A stretch of DNA of 34,670 nucleotides from a virus (Duplodnaviria > Heunggongvirae > Uroviricota > Caudoviricetes): IMG/VR virus record IMGVR_UViG_2563366941_000005; one strand, given 5' to 3'. Position numbers and translations under genes: made by a program. Position 1 is the first letter of the stretch. The number at the start of each line of letters is the position of its first letter. Positions 7,731-16,515 of this stretch are shown piece by piece. Under the pieces are notes generated by a model. It was not told the origin of the DNA and searched no databases. It was given only the letters and a program-made list of their open reading frames with translations.

Positions 7731-8405
7731 TTAGGCCTTTATTTTGTATCTTCTTGGTTTTCCTGAGAAAATTACTGTACCAATTATAGAGCAATTACCG
7801 TTAATCTTAATGTAAGGCTCAGGCCAGTTTGGGTTTAATGCTTTGAGATAACGCTGTGTTCCATCTTCTATCAATCGCTTGAAGGTGGTTTCGCCTGTAT
7901 CGTGCATCAATGCAATAACGTCGTCACCGTGGCAGGCAGGGACTTCGGGATCAACAAAAATCATGTCTCCCGGGCGGTACTCATCAATCATTGAATCACC
8001 AATCACCCGCAAGATATAAGTCATTTCGCCACAGGGTACAGGGCAGGGATAAGTTTCTGCTGTGCTCAAATCAACCTCAGAATAGCCAACTTCTTTCCAT
8101 GCTCCGGCCTGTACCCATGATATGACAGGGACTAACGTTATTTGTTTGTTAGTAATTGAAACATCAGGTTTTTTTGTGATGTTTGTTGTCTGGTGTTCTT
8201 GATCAAGCCATCCGACAGGCAGGTCGAAACATTTTTCGATGTGCCGTGCCATGCTGTCACCGATATTTTTAGTAGCACCATCTCCCATAAACCTGCTGGT
8301 CTGGGTTGGCTCGCGATCAATCATGGTGGCAAAGGAAGAATTCCCGCCAACACCATCTCTCAGTTTTCTGGCGTTAGACCGCCGGATGTCATGGACTGTT
8401 TTCAT
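7731..8405 (-). CDS. cI: CI-like prophage repressor (N-terminal HTH, C-terminal S24 LexA-like peptidase domain)
   Basis: 224-aa ORF; C-terminal VIGDSM...GD..FVD...K signature of S24 autopeptidase; divergent from the cro-like gene; no SD upstream, consistent with a leaderless transcript. Confidence 0.85.
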   Translation of the reverse strand: MKTVHDIRRSNARKLRDGVGGNSSFATMIDREPTQTSRFMGDGATKNIGDSMARHIEKCFDLPVGWLDQEHQTTNITKKPDVSITNKQITLVPVISWVQAGAWKEVGYSEVDLSTAETYPCPVPCGEMTYILRVIGDSMIDEYRPGDMIFVDPEVPACHGDDVIALMHDTGETTFKRLIEDGTQRYLKALNPNWPEPYIKINGNCSIIGTVIFSGKPRRYKIKA

Positions 8406-10660: not shown

Positions 10661-11475
10661 GTATGGAGCTGATGGTTAAAGCGATGAAAATTCGAGTGGG
10701 TAATCCATTGCGAAAACTGGTTCTGATCAAGCTGGCTGATAATGCCAGCGATCAGGGTGAGTGCTGGCCCAGCTACCAGCATATTGCTGACCAGTGCGAG
10801 ATTAGCAAACGTTCTGTGATGAATCATATTGCGGCCCTTTGTGAGTCCGGGCTGGTAAAAAAAGTCACCCGGAAAGGTGAAAAAGGTAACTCAAGTAATA
10901 TCTATCTCCTTCATCTTGATGGTGCAGGAGATTCACTAGGGGGTAGTGCAAATAATTCACTATCTGGTGCAGCAAATTCACCAGGTAGTGCAGGAGTTGC
11001 ACCAGGGGGTGGTGCAGGAGATTCACCCAGAACCAGTCACTCTTTTGAACCAGTCAAAGAACCAGTCAATGAACCAATAGCTGTTGGTGCATCTGCTGAT
11101 GAGTCTGTGCGAGTTCGTTCAAACCGACCGGAATACTCTCCGGAGTTTGAGCAGGCATGGCTGGCATACCCCAAACGTGCTGGTGGCAATTCAAAATCTG
11201 CAGCCTTCAAAGCCTGGAAAGCCCGTTTGAATGAGGGGGTAAAACCCGAAACCATGCTGGAAGGTGTGAAACGCTACGCGGGCTGGGTATCTGCGATGGG
11301 TAACAGCGGCACACAATTTGTGAAACAGGCTGTCACGTTCTTTGGTCCGGATCGTCATTTCGAAGAATCCTGGGAAGTTCCTGCGGTATCTGCAGCCAGA
11401 CGCGAGGACCCGTACTTCAAAGCCAGTTACGACAACGTGGACTACAGCCAGATCCCGGCAGGATTCAGGGGGTGA
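10657..11475 (+). CDS. Putative replication initiation protein (N-terminal winged HTH, Gly/Ser/Ala linker, YdaU/DUF1376-like C-terminus)
   Basis: ATG at 10657 with GGAGGTG SD; N-terminal HTH LRKLVLIKLADNASDQGECWPSYQHIADQCEISKRSVMNHIAALCESGLV; C-terminal EFEQAWLAYPKRAGGNSKSAAFKAWKARL. Confidence 0.65.
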   Translation: MSMELMVKAMKIRVGNPLRKLVLIKLADNASDQGECWPSYQHIADQCEISKRSVMNHIAALCESGLVKKVTRKGEKGNSSNIYLLHLDGAGDSLGGSANNSLSGAANSPGSAGVAPGGGAGDSPRTSHSFEPVKEPVNEPIAVGASADESVRVRSNRPEYSPEFEQAWLAYPKRAGGNSKSAAFKAWKARLNEGVKPETMLEGVKRYAGWVSAMGNSGTQFVKQAVTFFGPDRHFEESWEVPAVSAARREDPYFKASYDNVDYSQIPAGFRG

Positions 11476-11477
11476 TC

Positions 11478-11966
11478 ATGAGTCTTTTGAATGAAGTTCA
11501 GAAATTCATTGAAGCCCATCCGGGGTGTACTTCCGGAGACATTGCGGATGCTTTTGCAGGTTACTCACGGCAGCGCGTTCTGCAGTCAGCAAGCAAGTTA
11601 CGTCAGAGTGGGCGTGTGGCTCACCGTTGTGAAGGAGATACACGCAGACATTTCCCGCGCCTGACTGAGAGAGCACAGGAGCCGGAACCACAACCAGTTC
11701 GTGAAACCAGACCTGTGCGCAATTTCTGTGTCGGCACTAACGACCCGCAGGTGATTTTGTGCCTGACTCGCCAGGCGGAAGAACTGGAGTCCAGGGGCTT
11801 ATTCCGTCGAGCTGCAACGGTGTGGATGGAGGCATTCCGTGAAAGCCACTCCCAGCCAGAACGAAACAATTTTCTGGCGCATCGTGAGCGGTGCTTACGG
11901 AAAAGCAGCAAGCGCGCTGCATCGGGTGAAGAGTGGTATCTGTCAGGGAATTACGTGGGGGCTTAA
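11478..11966 (+). CDS. Winged-helix protein with PerC/Pch-like C-terminal motif
   Basis: C-terminal QAEELESRGLFRRAATVWMEAF ... ERNNFLAHRERCL resembles the PerC family signature; family assignment is from memory. Confidence 0.45.
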   Translation: MSLLNEVQKFIEAHPGCTSGDIADAFAGYSRQRVLQSASKLRQSGRVAHRCEGDTRRHFPRLTERAQEPEPQPVRETRPVRNFCVGTNDPQVILCLTRQAEELESRGLFRRAATVWMEAFRESHSQPERNNFLAHRERCLRKSSKRAASGEEWYLSGNYVGA

Positions 11967-12619
11967 TGAGTAATAAATATTGCCAGGCGCTGGTGGAGCT
12001 GCGGAACAAACCAGCCCATGAACTGAAGGAAGTGGGCGATCAGTGGCGCACGCCGGACAACATTTTCTGGGGAATTAACACCCTGTTTGGCCCGTTTGTT
12101 CTGGATCTGTTCACTGATGGTGATAACGCCAAATGTGCCGCTTATTACACTGCGGAAGACAACGCGCTGGCGCATGACTGGTCTGAACGTCTTGCGGAGC
12201 TTAAAGGTGCTGCCTTTGGTAATCCCCCGTACAGCCGCGCCAGTCAGCATGAGGGGCAATACATCACCGGCATGCGTTACATCATGAAACATGCCAGTGC
12301 CATGCGTGATAAAGGCGGGCGCTATGTTTTCCTGATCAAAGCTGCCACCAGCGAAGTGTGGTGGCCGGAAGATGCAGATCATATTGCTTTTATTCGCGGG
12401 CGTATTGGTTTTGAACTGCCTGCCTGGTTTATCCCGAAAGACGAAAAGCAGGTGCCAACAGGTGCTTTCTTCGCTGGTGCTATTGCTGTTTTCGACAAGA
12501 CCTGGAAGGGACCGGCAATCAGCTACATAGGGCGCGATGAACTTGAGGCATGTGGTGAGGCGTTTCTGGCGCAGGTTCGCCAGCAGGCGGAAAAACTGGT
12601 CAGGGAGATGGCGGCATGA
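11966..12619 (+). CDS. Phage DNA N6-adenine methyltransferase (Dam-like)
   Basis: NPPY catalytic motif (FGNPPYS); start at ATG 11966 (TAATG overlap with upstream stop). Confidence 0.8.
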   Translation: MSNKYCQALVELRNKPAHELKEVGDQWRTPDNIFWGINTLFGPFVLDLFTDGDNAKCAAYYTAEDNALAHDWSERLAELKGAAFGNPPYSRASQHEGQYITGMRYIMKHASAMRDKGGRYVFLIKAATSEVWWPEDADHIAFIRGRIGFELPAWFIPKDEKQVPTGAFFAGAIAVFDKTWKGPAISYIGRDELEACGEAFLAQVRQQAEKLVREMAA

Positions 12620-12942
12620 CGACGTTAACTCAATGCCAGCAGCAGGTGCTGGATATGCTGATTTCTTATCAGAAAGAACGTGGCTTCCCGCCAACCAATC
12701 AGGAGGTGGCAACCATGCTGGGATACCGTTCGGTGAATGCAGCGGTGGAGCATCTTCGCGCACTGGAGAAAAAAGGCGTCATCACGATAAAGCGTGGCGT
12801 GGCCCGGGGGATAACGCTTCATACTGCGATGAAGGACGACGACAGCGAGGCGGTCGGGATTATCCGCGCACTGCTTGCCGGTGAGGAAAACGCAAGGCTG
12901 CGTGCAACCCACTGGTTACATGAGAGGGGCCTGAAAGTATGA
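12616..12942 (+). CDS. LexA-like protein with DNA-binding domain only (no S24 peptidase domain)
   Basis: 108 aa; alignable by eye with the E. coli LexA N-terminal winged helix (QQVLDML...GFPPTNQEVATMLGYRSVNAAVEHLRALEKKGVITI..ARGITL); ATGA-coupled to both neighbours. Confidence 0.7.
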   Translation: MTTLTQCQQQVLDMLISYQKERGFPPTNQEVATMLGYRSVNAAVEHLRALEKKGVITIKRGVARGITLHTAMKDDDSEAVGIIRALLAGEENARLRATHWLHERGLKV

Positions 12943-13334
12943 AGCTAATACTGCCTTTTCCGCCCAGCGTGAACACGTACTGGCGACACCCCAACAAAGG
13001 GGCGTTTGCTGGTAAGAGCCTGATAAGCGCGGCGGGGCGAAAATTCCAGAGCGCGGCGTGTGCAGCAATAGTTGAGCAGTTACGTCGTCTGCCGAAACCA
13101 ACGTCGGCACCTGCTTCAGTGGAGATCGTGTTGTTTCCTCCGGATAACCGGATCCGCGATCTGGACAACTATAACAAGGCGCTGTTTGACGCCCTGACCC
13201 ACGCGGGTGTGTGGGAAGACGACAGTCAGGTGAAAAGAATGCTGGTGGAGTGGGGACCGGTTATCCCGGAGGGGAAGGTCGAGATCACTATCAGTAAGTA
13301 CGAAAAAGCGAGTTGCAAATTAGCAACTCGGTAA
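12939..13334 (+). CDS. rusA: RusA-family Holliday junction resolvase
   Basis: 131 aa; PFPPSVNTYWR ... DLDNYNKALFDALT ... DDSQV matches the RusA signature. Confidence 0.85.
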   Translation: MKLILPFPPSVNTYWRHPNKGAFAGKSLISAAGRKFQSAACAAIVEQLRRLPKPTSAPASVEIVLFPPDNRIRDLDNYNKALFDALTHAGVWEDDSQVKRMLVEWGPVIPEGKVEITISKYEKASCKLATR

Positions 13335-13379
13335 CGGAATTGAGCAACACCCTAAATTTGGGTATTACCTCGTTAAAGA

Positions 13380-13399
13380 TACTGTATTTATGAACAGTG
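13380..13399. promoter_or_regulatory. SOS box (LexA operator) TACTGTATTTATGAACAGTG
   Basis: Perfect CTGT-N8-ACAG core with AT-rich spacer, about 100 bp upstream of the KilA-N gene and just downstream of candidate -35 TTGAGC (13340-13345) / -10 TATTAC (13363-13368). Confidence 0.7.
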
Positions 13400-14313: not shown

Positions 14314-15309
14314 GTGACTGTGAGAGCACTACTGACCCCTGAAATTGCCCCGCGTATGGGGATCGTATTGTTCAGGCCAGGTTCAGAGCTGATGCCCCTG
14401 TTTATGCAGGGGCGTGTCCTGCTGGAGCCTGAGCCGGAGCGTTATTCATCTTTCGCCAGTGGTGCCGTTCCGGCGGCATCACAACCGCTGGCGGATGATC
14501 CTGCCGTTCGGGCCGTGTTCCGCCATGAGGCAGTGATCCGTCGTGCTGGTGGCGTGGAATGTCTTGAAAGCTGGTTACTTCGTGAAAAAGGCTGCCAGTG
14601 GCCTCATTCCGGATGGCACAGCGAGAACATGACCACAATGCGACACGCTCCGGGTGCAATCCGTCTGTGCTGGCACTGCGATAACCAGCTGCGCGATCAG
14701 TTCACGGAACGGCTGGAATCAATGGCAACGGATAACTGTGCCCGCTGGGTGTTGTCTGTTGTGCGTCGGGATCTCGGTTTTGATGACAGTCACGTTGTGA
14801 CAATGCCGGAACTGTGCTGGTGGCTGATTCGTAATGACCTGGCGGATGCCTTACCGGAAAGTGCAGCCCGTAAGGCACTGAGATTACCGAAGCCTGTTGT
14901 GCCGTCTGTCACCCGGGAAAGTGACCTTGTGCCTTCGGTTCCTGCCACCAGCATCATCCAGGATAAAGCGAAAAAGGTGCTGGCGCTGAAAGTGGATCCG
15001 GAGTCGCCGGAGTCTTTTATGTTACGCCCCAAACGTCGCCGCTGGGTTAATGAAAAGTACACGCGCTGGGTTAAGACGCAGCCGTGTGCATGTTGTGGAA
15101 AGCCTGCTGATGATCCCCACCACCTGATAGGCCACGGTCAGGGGGGAATGGGTACAAAAGCGCATGACCTCTTCGTGCTGCCTTTGTGCAGAAAGCATCA
15201 CGACGAGCTGCATGCGGATACCGTGGCATTTGAAGAGAAGTATGGCTCCCAACTGGAGCTGATATTTCGTTTTATCGATCGTGCGCTGGCAATAGGCGTG
15301 CTGGCCTGA
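14314..15309 (+). CDS. DUF968-like phage protein with C-terminal HNH-like zinc-binding motif
   Basis: 331-aa ORF; C-terminal CACCGK...HHLIGHGQGG...CRKHHDELH; start codon uncertain (GTG 14314 or 14320). Confidence 0.6.
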   Translation: MTVRALLTPEIAPRMGIVLFRPGSELMPLFMQGRVLLEPEPERYSSFASGAVPAASQPLADDPAVRAVFRHEAVIRRAGGVECLESWLLREKGCQWPHSGWHSENMTTMRHAPGAIRLCWHCDNQLRDQFTERLESMATDNCARWVLSVVRRDLGFDDSHVVTMPELCWWLIRNDLADALPESAARKALRLPKPVVPSVTRESDLVPSVPATSIIQDKAKKVLALKVDPESPESFMLRPKRRRWVNEKYTRWVKTQPCACCGKPADDPHHLIGHGQGGMGTKAHDLFVLPLCRKHHDELHADTVAFEEKYGSQLELIFRFIDRALAIGVLA

Positions 15310-15326
15310 TTTTGTGGAGAAAGTTG

Positions 15327-15698
15327 ATGCGTGATATTCAAATGGTTCTTGAACGTTGGGGGGCATGGGTGGCAAATAATCACGAGGATGTGGAATGGTC
15401 ATCTGTTGCTGCAGGTTTTAAGGGATTAATTCCTTCGAAAGTAAAATCCCGCCCGCAATGTAGCGATGACGATGGCCTGATCATTAGCTCTGCGATGACA
15501 GTTCTTAAGAAAAAGGAACCGTATCAATACGAATTACTGGAAATGTATTATGTGTATGGGGTTACATTACGGGTGTTGGGGGTAAAACTGGGGATATCAC
15601 TTAATCAGGTTGTTATCAGACTGCAGAAAGCTGAAGGGTTTATTGACGGTTGTCTGGCAATGTTGGGGGTATCTTTAGAAATTGATTGTTACATATAG
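15327..15698 (+). CDS. Q: Late-gene antiterminator Q
   Basis: MRDIQMVLERWGAWV N-terminus typical of the phage antitermination Q family; GGAG SD; immediately upstream of the late region. Confidence 0.7.
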   Translation: MRDIQMVLERWGAWVANNHEDVEWSSVAAGFKGLIPSKVKSRPQCSDDDGLIISSAMTVLKKKEPYQYELLEMYYVYGVTLRVLGVKLGISLNQVVIRLQKAEGFIDGCLAMLGVSLEIDCYI

Positions 15699-15817: not shown

Positions 15818-16093
15818 GTGGCTTCTGTTTCTATCAGCTGTCCCTCCTGTTCAGCTACTGACGGGGTGGTGCGTAACGGCAAAAGCACCGCCGGACATCA
15901 GCGCTATCTCTGCTCTCACTGCCGTAAAACATGGCAACTGCAGTTCACTTACACCGCTTCTCAACCCGGTACGCACCAGAAAATCATTGATATGGCCATG
16001 AATGGCGTTGGATGCCGGGCAACAGCCCGCATTATGGGCGTTGGCCTCAACACGATTTTACGTCACTTAAAAAACTCAGGCCGCAGTCGGTAA
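15818..16093 (+). CDS. insA: IS1 InsA
   Basis: 91-aa [40 protein letters not shown]..., recognised as IS1 InsA. Confidence 0.95.
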
Positions 16094-16515
16094 CCTCGCG
16101 CATACAGCCGGGCAGTGACGTCATCGTCTGCGCGGAAATGGACGAACAGTGGGGCTATGTCGGGGCTAAATCGCGCCAGCGCTGGCTGTTTTACGCGTAT
16201 GACAGGCTCCGGAAGACGGTTGTTGCGCACGTATTCGGTGAACGCACTATGGCGACGCTGGGGCGTCTTATGAGCCTGCTGTCACCCTTTGACGTGGTGA
16301 TATGGATGACGGATGGCTGGCCGCTGTATGAATCCCGCCTGAAGGGAAAGCTGCACGTAATCAGCAAGCGATATACGCAGCGAATTGAGCGGCATAACCT
16401 GAATCTGAGGCAGCACCTGGCACGGCTGGGACGGAAGTCGCTGTCGTTCTCAAAATCGGTGGAGCTGCATGACAAAGTCATCGGGCATTATCTGAACATA
16501 AAACACTATCAATAA
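16012..16515 (+). CDS. insB: IS1 InsB reading frame (transposase made as InsAB-prime by -1 frameshift)
   Basis: 167-aa frame; A6C slippery motif TTAAAAAACTC at about 16066-16076 in the insA/insB overlap. Confidence 0.9.

Follow-up and report, generated by a model that had tools for sequence, protein, structure and literature searches.

A stand-alone LexA-type DNA-binding protein of enterobacterial lambdoid prophages and its association with SOS boxes

Introduction

Truncated LexA homologues of phages are already a known kind of protein, since gp6 of GIL01, a tectivirus of Bacillus thuringiensis, has been characterised (Fornelos et al. 2018, PMC6182141). The DNA-binding domain (DBD) of gp6 is 44% identical to that of the host LexA, yet it recognises a palindrome that bears no relation to the SOS box of the host, and it activates P3, a late promoter. 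Here we describe a gene for a stand-alone LexA-type DNA-binding protein of 108 amino acids (aa), called the LexA-like protein below, in a 34,670-nucleotide (nt) stretch of DNA from a virus of the Caudoviricetes (IMG/VR record IMGVR_UViG_2563366941_000005); this whole stretch is referred to as the window. By its published description, gp6 has much in common with this protein: both are encoded by temperate phages, have a LexA winged helix without the S24 protease domain, show about 44-50% identity to the host LexA DBD and would be expressed from an early promoter after SOS induction, the GIL01 switch being wired to host LexA. The two differ in that gp6 has no C-terminal two-helix module, and in that GIL01 is a linear plasmid-prophage of a Gram-positive host, whereas the LexA-like gene lies in the nin region of a lambdoid prophage, beside rusA.

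Other described systems bear on different aspects of the locus. In the Gifsy prophages, an operon shown by experiment to be LexA-controlled consists of a terminator, a LexA box, dinI, a small antirepressor gene and irsA (Lemire et al. 2011, PMC3121763). The LexA DBD alone fails to repress sulA-lacZ, but does so when joined to any dimerising protein, according to the assay description in PMC7160566, which cites Dmitrova 1998. GIL01 gp7, DinI, Tum and PsiB are further products of mobile elements that tune LexA/RecA signalling, and DinI is co-encoded with the LexA-like protein in one branch of its family. These four act on the LexA or RecA proteins, however, whereas the LexA-like protein would act on DNA operators.

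Annotation already exists for the gene and for its DBD-only architecture: RefSeq names it after LexA, and PHROGs calls its family a transcriptional repressor. With gp6 as a characterised precedent as well, the idea put forward in an earlier note on this DNA, that of a phage LexA reduced to its DBD, is not new in kind. No study of the enterobacterial short LexA-DBD family was found in the literature we searched; proteins called 'LexA family transcriptional regulator' in PMC8044961 are CI-type repressors, and a 'bully phage' preprint makes use of Cro, not of a LexA mimic. What appears to be undescribed there is the conserved tail of the protein, its strict nin-region cassette and the presence of a LexA look-alike inside Gifsy-type LexA/dinI operons. 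Our tentative proposal, with gp6 as the closest precedent, is that of a dimeric repressor, insensitive to RecA, which recognises SOS boxes and exerts feedback on phage, and perhaps host, SOS promoters; we consider this reading possible rather than probable.

Results

A LexA winged helix carries a helical hairpin in place of the protease domain

The 108-aa protein is a LexA-type winged-helix DBD in which a linker and a two-helix hairpin replace the S24 protease/dimerisation domain of LexA (Table 1). The Pfam profile LexA_DNA_bind (PF01726) matched residues 1-65 over the whole of its 65 positions (E=2.9e-19, 69 bits, above the gathering score of 23.7 bits), and the closest solved structures were the DBD of Escherichia coli LexA (1lea, E=6e-16) and full-length LexA (E about 1e-15). 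The earlier note, which had aligned the product by eye with the N-terminal domain of E. coli LexA, was thus correct on this point. Identity to that domain is 49-51%, with 34 of 69 aligned residues identical when counted from the alignment. The AlphaFold2 (AF2) model has a mean predicted local distance difference test score (pLDDT) of 78 and falls into three parts: a winged helix with three helices (6-22, 28-35, 40-52) and two strands (56-58, 66-68), a 7-residue linker of low confidence (residues 69-75) that joins the DBD to the hairpin, and the hairpin itself (pLDDT about 88). In the comparison with the LexA DBD by structure prediction, which had been suggested as a check, Foldseek superposed the modelled winged helix on DNA-bound LexA (3jso) with a root-mean-square deviation of 1.2 A over 68 columns, at 50% identity. 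The hairpin has no counterpart in LexA in this superposition.

A Pfam search of the protein found no Peptidase_S24 (PF00717) domain, as the note had supposed; the protein ends at residue 108 and rusA begins at its stop codon. TIGR00498, the NCBIfam equivalog for LexA, scored 70.4 bits, below its cutoff of 110.95, and was matched over positions 1-91 of 203. PHROG 362 was matched over the full length of the protein (E=1.2e-59, residues 1-108 over profile positions 1-106). With host LexA (TIGR00498; 1lea, 3jso) the protein shares the N-terminal winged helix-turn-helix (HTH) fold and most of the helix-III contacts, and it is likely to prefer CTGT-type half-sites. In contrast to host LexA, it lacks the S24 domain, Ser119/Lys156 and the conserved Ala84-Gly85, and it cannot dimerise via the LexA C-terminal domain. 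Because it has neither the protease domain nor a conserved cleavage site, it cannot answer activated RecA the LexA way and should be insensitive to it.

The part played by the tail was read differently in the earlier note, where the stretch AVGIIRALLAGEE was compared to the LexA hinge. The AF2 model puts most of this stretch into helix 75-87 and the turn behind it. The A88-G89 dipeptide sits at that turn, and both positions vary in the family (G, N, K, R, D, C, E), so that it fails as a conserved LexA-type Ala-Gly self-cleavage site. When residues 69-108 were aligned locally with the post-DBD part of two full-length LexA homologues, the score of 22 did not rise above that of shuffled sequences (2000 shuffles; means of 21.3 and 22.4; score reached by 41-52% of shuffles). 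Together, the shuffle test, the helical placement and the lack of conservation of A88 and G89 speak against homology to the LexA hinge. The tail is a family-specific, conserved helical module: the hairpin is retained down to 41% identity, with A97 and L101 invariant and L86, L87 and A93 also conserved in the family alignments.

We infer that the hairpin dimerises the protein. A conserved helical hairpin behind a short linker would be a plausible natural dimerising partner for a LexA-type DBD, by analogy with the engineered LexA-DBD fusions (Dmitrova 1998, as described for the assay of PMC7160566), in which a foreign dimerisation module yields a repressor of SOS operators that is independent of the LexA C-terminal domain. 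Those fusions are artificial and carry the authentic E. coli DBD, whereas the module is natural here and both dimerisation and the operator are predicted.

The family is widespread and keeps its length and both modules

The family comprises proteins of 104-135 aa encoded in lambdoid prophages of Enterobacteriaceae. The window gene is 100% identical to a copy in E. coli O104:H4 and in other genomes; it is found in 50 deposited phage genomes, including mEp460, SfIV, SfII, SfV, cdtI, Ayreon and Stx2a/2c/2k phages, and in 2233 of 5426 complete E. coli genomes (41%) at an identity of at least 90%, with up to 4 copies per genome. Close homologues are all 104-108 aa long. A search of 1.84 billion representative proteins yielded distant full-length relatives from Cronobacter, Kosakonia, Enterobacter, Cedecea, Klebsiella and Salmonella, with 41-52% identity, 106-135 aa and the same tail.

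The earlier note had named a truncated piece of a longer LexA-like gene as a finding that would overturn its interpretation. The lengths of the close and distant relatives rule this out; longer database entries are frameshift or fusion calls. A related explanation is that the gene is a decaying, functionless remnant of a captured lexA, since only the N-terminal half of LexA is present and no experimental phenotype is known. However, the length and both modules are conserved from 98% to 41% identity across eight genera (Escherichia, Salmonella, Citrobacter, Cronobacter, Kosakonia, Enterobacter, Cedecea and Klebsiella), the gene is as frequent in E. coli as stated above, and it is translationally coupled to both of its neighbours. 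We regard a remnant as scarcely credible, and this conservation as effectively refuting it.

Other arrangements of the LexA_DNA_bind domain were also seen. Nine proteins (P0132, P0133, P0147, P0148, P0153, P0155, P0161, P0230 and P0235) have two tandem copies without an S24 domain, i.e. they are single-chain 'pseudo-dimers' of the LexA winged helix; P0153 has a PTPS domain in addition. The domain is fused to HNH_3 in P0208, to the C-terminal part of DUF968 in P0158 and to a CN_hydrolase fragment in P0190, which is possibly chimeric. In a degenerate prophage (L266, 4576-5584), a RecA homologue split into RecA_N and RecA_C open reading frames (ORFs) lies directly upstream of a small ORF and a fused LexA-like gene.

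SOS boxes accompany the gene, most consistently in a sister branch

At the family level, the link between the gene and SOS boxes is real. The sets of loci analysed were the best 80 matches of each scan and contain many near-clonal copies. Seven diverged loci were searched, without bias, for shared perfect palindromes; ACTGT-N8-ACAGT was the only pattern present in at least four of them. This search led us to loci L087 and L090, where a terminator, a TTGCA(A/T)-17-AATAAT/AATACT promoter and an SOS box stand directly before a 75-82-aa ORF and the LexA-like gene.

The sister branch is about 41% identical to the window protein, and its scan gave 80 loci with 47-97% identity to P0139, 76 of them with at least 800 nt of upstream sequence. 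A perfect-core SOS box lies 400-720 bp before the gene in 67 of the 76, in 45 sequence contexts and as 18 distinct 20-mers; about 105 perfect cores occur in the 752 kb of these loci, compared to 11.5 expected. The box overlaps a TTGAAC-17-TACTGT promoter located after a terminator, and the first gene after the box is dinI in 66 of 80 loci (Pfam E=1.6e-25). A GUG-started phrog_1813 ORF, the LexA-like gene, phrog_1212, sometimes rusA, DUF968 and Q then follow. This LexA-box/dinI layout predicts that the sister-branch gene is SOS-induced and co-transcribed with a modulator of activated RecA.

Inspection of the Gifsy-2 sequence showed that it shares this promoter design and dinI with the sister branch, and that its third gene is likewise followed by phrog_1212. 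The likeness to the sister branch extends over the terminator, the TTGAAx-17-TACTGT promoter with its SOS box, dinI, a small GUG-started ORF, a third gene, phrog_1212, a resolvase gene and then Q. The small ORF differs (phrog_4847 in Gifsy-2, phrog_1813 in the sister branch), and so does the third gene, which is irsA in Gifsy-2 but the LexA-like gene in the sister branch. We can rule out that irsA itself encodes a LexA-like protein: Gifsy-2 STM1020 is a DUF1367, NinB/Orf-like protein. The window resembles Gifsy prophages in that an SOS box precedes a candidate antirepressor-like gene upstream of Q. It differs in having the LexA-like gene upstream of the box, under pR, and a prophage repressor of the cleavable S24 type; it also lacks the dinI-first feature, as tblastn found no DinI homologue in the window.

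The phrog_1813 ORF (GUG-started, 75-96 aa; L325 4586-4876, L087 4713-4961, L090 4724-4951) is a candidate new family of LexA-controlled antirepressors, by analogy with GftA/GfoA, whose position in the Gifsy operons it occupies.

The placement of these boxes also bears on the notion that the protein antagonises the SOS repressor, occupying boxes or half-sites without repressing, or disturbing host LexA, and so favouring SOS and prophage genes. It has the same DNA-binding fold as LexA and would be made in the lytic programme, and a monomeric DBD would bind weakly, following the principle of the assay described in PMC7160566. However, the boxes of the sister branch and of Gifsy-2 overlap the -10 and +1 of their promoters, so that binding there should cause repression; in addition, the conserved tail favours an oligomer of a defined kind, and co-expression with dinI points to damping of the SOS response. 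We therefore hold an antagonist to be very improbable.

One SOS box lies downstream of the window gene

The earlier note had placed a perfect SOS box about 440 bp downstream of the LexA-like gene, and this is borne out: TACTGTATTTATGAACAGTG lies on the same strand and has a perfect CTGT-N8-ACAG core, with 16 of 20 matches to the 20-nt consensus. It is the sole 20-mer in the window that combines CTG and CAG in register with at least 12 consensus matches. The bare 16-nt core by itself is at chance level (11 matches with one mismatch allowed vs. 11.9 expected; 2 exact). A TTGGGT-16-TACTGT promoter whose -10 coincides with the left arm of the box is possible, by analogy with the sister-branch and Gifsy-2 design. 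The box is identical in 98 viral contig stretches.

The first 40 nt or so of the gap between rusA and kilA-N (13335-13375, GAATTGAGCAACACCCTAAATTTGGGTATTAC) resemble an internal segment, GAATTGACCAACACCCAGAATTTGGGTGTTGAC, of a KilA-N allele that lacks the box, where the segment forms a near-perfect palindrome. This resemblance suggests that the SOS-box module may stem from recombination within an ancestral KilA-N gene.

Two further kinds of SOS box recur among the related loci. The box (T/C)ACTGTAAAAATAAACAGTG occurs after Q. In L090 (7739-7758) it lies directly upstream of an N6_N4 DNA methyltransferase gene, and about 12 viral loci of E. coli (e.g. L020, L025, L029) have it at a distance of 3.4-3.9 kb downstream from the LexA-like gene. 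The near-perfect box TACTGTATATAAAAACAGTA (coding strand) lies inside the coding sequence of a CI-type HTH+S24 repressor, in the linker region (L026 1109-1128; also L027, L030, L043, L052, L053, L058, L066, L071 and L081, and about -7.16 kb from Q in L194 and L239). The CI-type repressor gene of the window has no box of the TACTGTATATAAAAACAGTA type.

Does the protein read the SOS box?

In LexA, helix III makes contacts through S39, N41, A42, E44 and E45, as listed in a secondary source (PMC3091678). The LexA-like protein keeps four of these five residues, S39, N41, A42 and E45, in which it differs from gp6. The altered-specificity variant LexA408 changes residues 40-42, which would mark these as the positions that set specificity. 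Throughout the family S39 is invariant, N41 nearly so, and A42 is present in most members. A search for palindromes with perfect 5-6-nt arms within about 5 kb of the gene revealed no alternative to the SOS box that was shared between loci or that stood out.

Several observations weigh against the proposal that the protein represses at SOS boxes. The fifth contact residue, E44 in LexA, is V44 in the LexA-like protein. Residues 43-45 are highly variable: they are AVE in the window protein, VLL, VAL, AAE, IAE, ALT or AFS in the sister branch, and ATD, AFE, VFI or IAG elsewhere in the family, while the SOS boxes near genes with these different residues all keep the CTGT core. Such variation against constant boxes fits operators of the proteins' own that have diversified, or else tolerance at those positions. 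Host LexA alone can explain every SOS box found. The box is also facultative: the gap with the box is present in 20 of the 80 viral loci with the gene at 98% identity or more, in 58 of these 80 near-identical loci rusA runs directly into another KilA-N allele and there is no box, and no SOS box was found within 5 kb in five diverged relatives. Conversely, the LexA-like gene lies upstream in 64 of the 70 loci that have the exact TACTGTATTTATGAACAGTG box. The window box is thus a feature of one mosaic variant and not an obligate partner of the gene, and the fixed pairing implied by the self-contained circuit of the earlier note is not borne out. A sigma-70 consensus scan reports no promoter at the window box. 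A comparison of loci anchored on Q speaks for the proposal, as 16 of 34 loci that carry the gene have an SOS box within the 8 kb upstream vs. 1 of 38 that lack it, but this contrast is confounded by shared ancestry, as it concerns essentially one linked module. Lastly, non-polar deletions of dinI or irsA leave the induction of Gifsy prophages unaffected (PMC3121763), indicating that accessory genes of such operons can be phenotypically silent.

Much of this evidence is shared with the chief competing explanation, in which the protein is a phage-specific transcription factor of the gp6 kind, with an operator of its own: its specificity would have drifted from the SOS box, which only host LexA would read, and it would activate or repress particular phage promoters, e.g. 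those of late or nin-region genes. The precedent of gp6 itself, the substitution of E44, the divergence of residues 43-45 between branches whose nearby boxes do not differ, and the many loci that have no SOS box nearby are all in keeping with such a factor. Against it, no other palindrome is common to the diverged loci or prominent near the gene, the only enriched palindrome being the SOS box, and the conservation of S39, N41 and A42 described above, together with the changes at residues 40-42 in LexA408, also tells against it. We consider a private operator rather unlikely.

The gene is an internal member of a delayed-early operon

The window is a lambdoid prophage, and the LexA-like gene sits in its delayed-early (nin) operon. 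The gene order is a CI-type S24 repressor (minus strand), cII-like, Rha/Ash, HTH/DnaD-like replication, PerC-family, Dam, LexA-like and rusA, followed after a gap by KilA-N, DUF968/HNH and Q (Table 1). Through its ATGA overlaps with dam and rusA, the LexA-like gene is translationally coupled on both sides and lies inside a long rightward operon. Since the prophage has its own S24 CI-type repressor, the lysis-lysogeny switch is provided with a cleavable repressor of its own. A sigma-70 consensus scan found no promoter in front of the LexA-like gene, and for this reason the protein should be made only after derepression or infection. The KilA-N protein, by its position, is a candidate antirepressor-like regulator.

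Table 1. Coordinates of the LexA-like gene, its parts and surrounding features in the window
Feature	Position	Strand	Evidence and remarks
CI-type repressor with Peptidase_S24	7731..8405	-	Pfam Peptidase_S24 E=1.5e-26; cleavable switch, separate from the LexA-like gene
Dam-type N6-adenine methyltransferase gene	11966..12619	+	Pfam Dam E=1e-45; stop overlaps LexA-like start (ATGA)
Stand-alone LexA-type DNA-binding protein gene, 108 aa	12616..12942	+	ORF, ATG start; RefSeq WP_000210143.1 'LexA family transcriptional regulator'; PHROG 362 ('transcriptional repressor')
Winged HTH, residues 1-68	12616..12819	+	AF2 secondary structure; Foldseek to 3jso
Recognition helix, residues 40-52	12733-12771	+	Positions of note S39, N41, A42, V44, E45
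C-terminal two-helix hairpin, residues 75-87 and 93-103	12838..12924	+	AF2; family-specific; proposed dimerisation module
rusA Holliday-junction resolvase gene	12939..13334	+	Pfam RusA E=6e-15; start overlaps LexA-like stop (ATGA)
Possible weak sigma-70 promoter	13358..13385	+	-35 TTGGGT, 16-nt spacer, -10 TACTGT = left arm of the box; by eye
SOS (LexA) box TACTGTATTTATGAACAGTG	13380..13399	.	In the 162-bp rusA/KilA-N gap, 438 bp past the LexA-like stop
KilA-N domain protein, 271 aa	13497..14312	+	Pfam KilA-N E=1e-15; phrog_129 E=4e-109; first gene after the SOS box
DUF968 / HNH-nuclease-like protein	14314..15309	+	Pfam DUF968 E=2e-81; conserved cassette member
Antiterminator Q	15312..15698	+	Pfam Phage_antitermQ E=1.5e-47; last gene downstream of the SOS box

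The most conserved neighbour is rusA, which adjoins the LexA-like gene in all 80 close loci. In every diverged lineage examined, the gene precedes rusA either directly or with one small ORF in between, and DUF968 and an antiterminator come next; the methylases, the KilA-N or Rha/ANT genes and the morons around the family vary. This constancy brings in a further explanation, that the protein is a DNA-binding accessory that targets or regulates the RusA resolvase and DUF968/HNH on DNA and has no part in transcription. The gene stands directly upstream of rusA, often with a 4-nt overlap, and then DUF968, in every lineage examined down to 41% identity, where the KilA-N or Rha/ANT gene and the SOS box, unlike rusA and DUF968, are variable; the fusions of LexA_DNA_bind in P0208 and P0158 can be cited in the same sense. 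However, only one contig has the P0158 fusion, which resembles the product of a deletion between two adjacent genes and is a weak lead at best, and P0208 is without the family tail. Moreover, most sister-branch loci lack rusA yet retain the LexA-like gene, and lambdoid nin gene order is conserved through modular inheritance, irrespective of function. We consider such an accessory role quite improbable.

Some further features of the region were noted. The PerC-family gene (11472-11966) lies in the early operon in a yfdN-like position; virulence loci of pathogenic E. coli are under the control of PerC/Pch homologues. The 3' end of rusA (13309-13330) contains a near-perfect palindrome of 22 nt, CGAGTTGCAAATTAGCAACTCG, with no T-run on the plus strand. 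An IS1 transposase ORF (16012-16515) follows just after Q, and from IS1 on the window departs from the O104:H4 prophage, which has two minus-strand genes there, one hypothetical and one for a nucleoid-associated protein.

Discussion

Having set these explanations side by side, we return to the proposal of an uncleavable dimeric repressor of SOS boxes. Expression would begin with the activation of pR in the window, and with that of the LexA-controlled operon in the sister branch. The hairpin would then dimerise the protein, and the dimer would bind operators of the CTGT-N8-ACAG type. Since the LexA-like protein cannot be cleaved, it could re-close LexA-controlled promoters while activated RecA is still at work. 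The predicted target in the window is the 13380-13399 box that precedes kilA-N, DUF968 and Q. For the sister branch, the corresponding target would be the promoter of the protein's own operon of dinI and the small ORF; host SOS genes may also be among the targets. The outcome would be a delayed negative feedback that is insensitive to damage, i.e. a shut-off of SOS-controlled transcription. What has been observed is the fold, the missing protease, the position in the genome and the link with SOS boxes and dinI; dimerisation, the operator and repression are what the proposal adds.

A bolder version, which we consider unlikely, is that the family is a RecA-proof surrogate of LexA that, after the firing of a prophage or of its LexA-controlled operon, re-occupies SOS boxes genome-wide and turns the SOS regulon off while damage persists. 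If so, the regulon affected would include colicins, SulA, Pol V and the antirepressors that LexA controls in competing prophages, and about 41% of E. coli genomes, including those with Stx2 phages, would carry a phage-encoded off-switch for the SOS response.

If the protein instead has an operator of its own, the family would be a second, Gram-negative case of the principle illustrated by gp6, in which a LexA DBD is recycled as a private regulator of the phage.

If the protein does bind SOS boxes, many strains of E. coli, Salmonella, Klebsiella and Enterobacter, including strains with Stx2a, Stx2c and Stx2k phages, would possess a second, uncleavable repressor that appears just when LexA is destroyed. 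The duration of the SOS response after antibiotic treatment and the competition between co-resident prophages with LexA-controlled antirepressors would be affected, and so would SOS mutagenesis and the time at which Shiga-toxin phages are induced. Such binding would also account for the bundling of dinI with a LexA look-alike in LexA-controlled phage operons, as both would damp the very signal that activated them.

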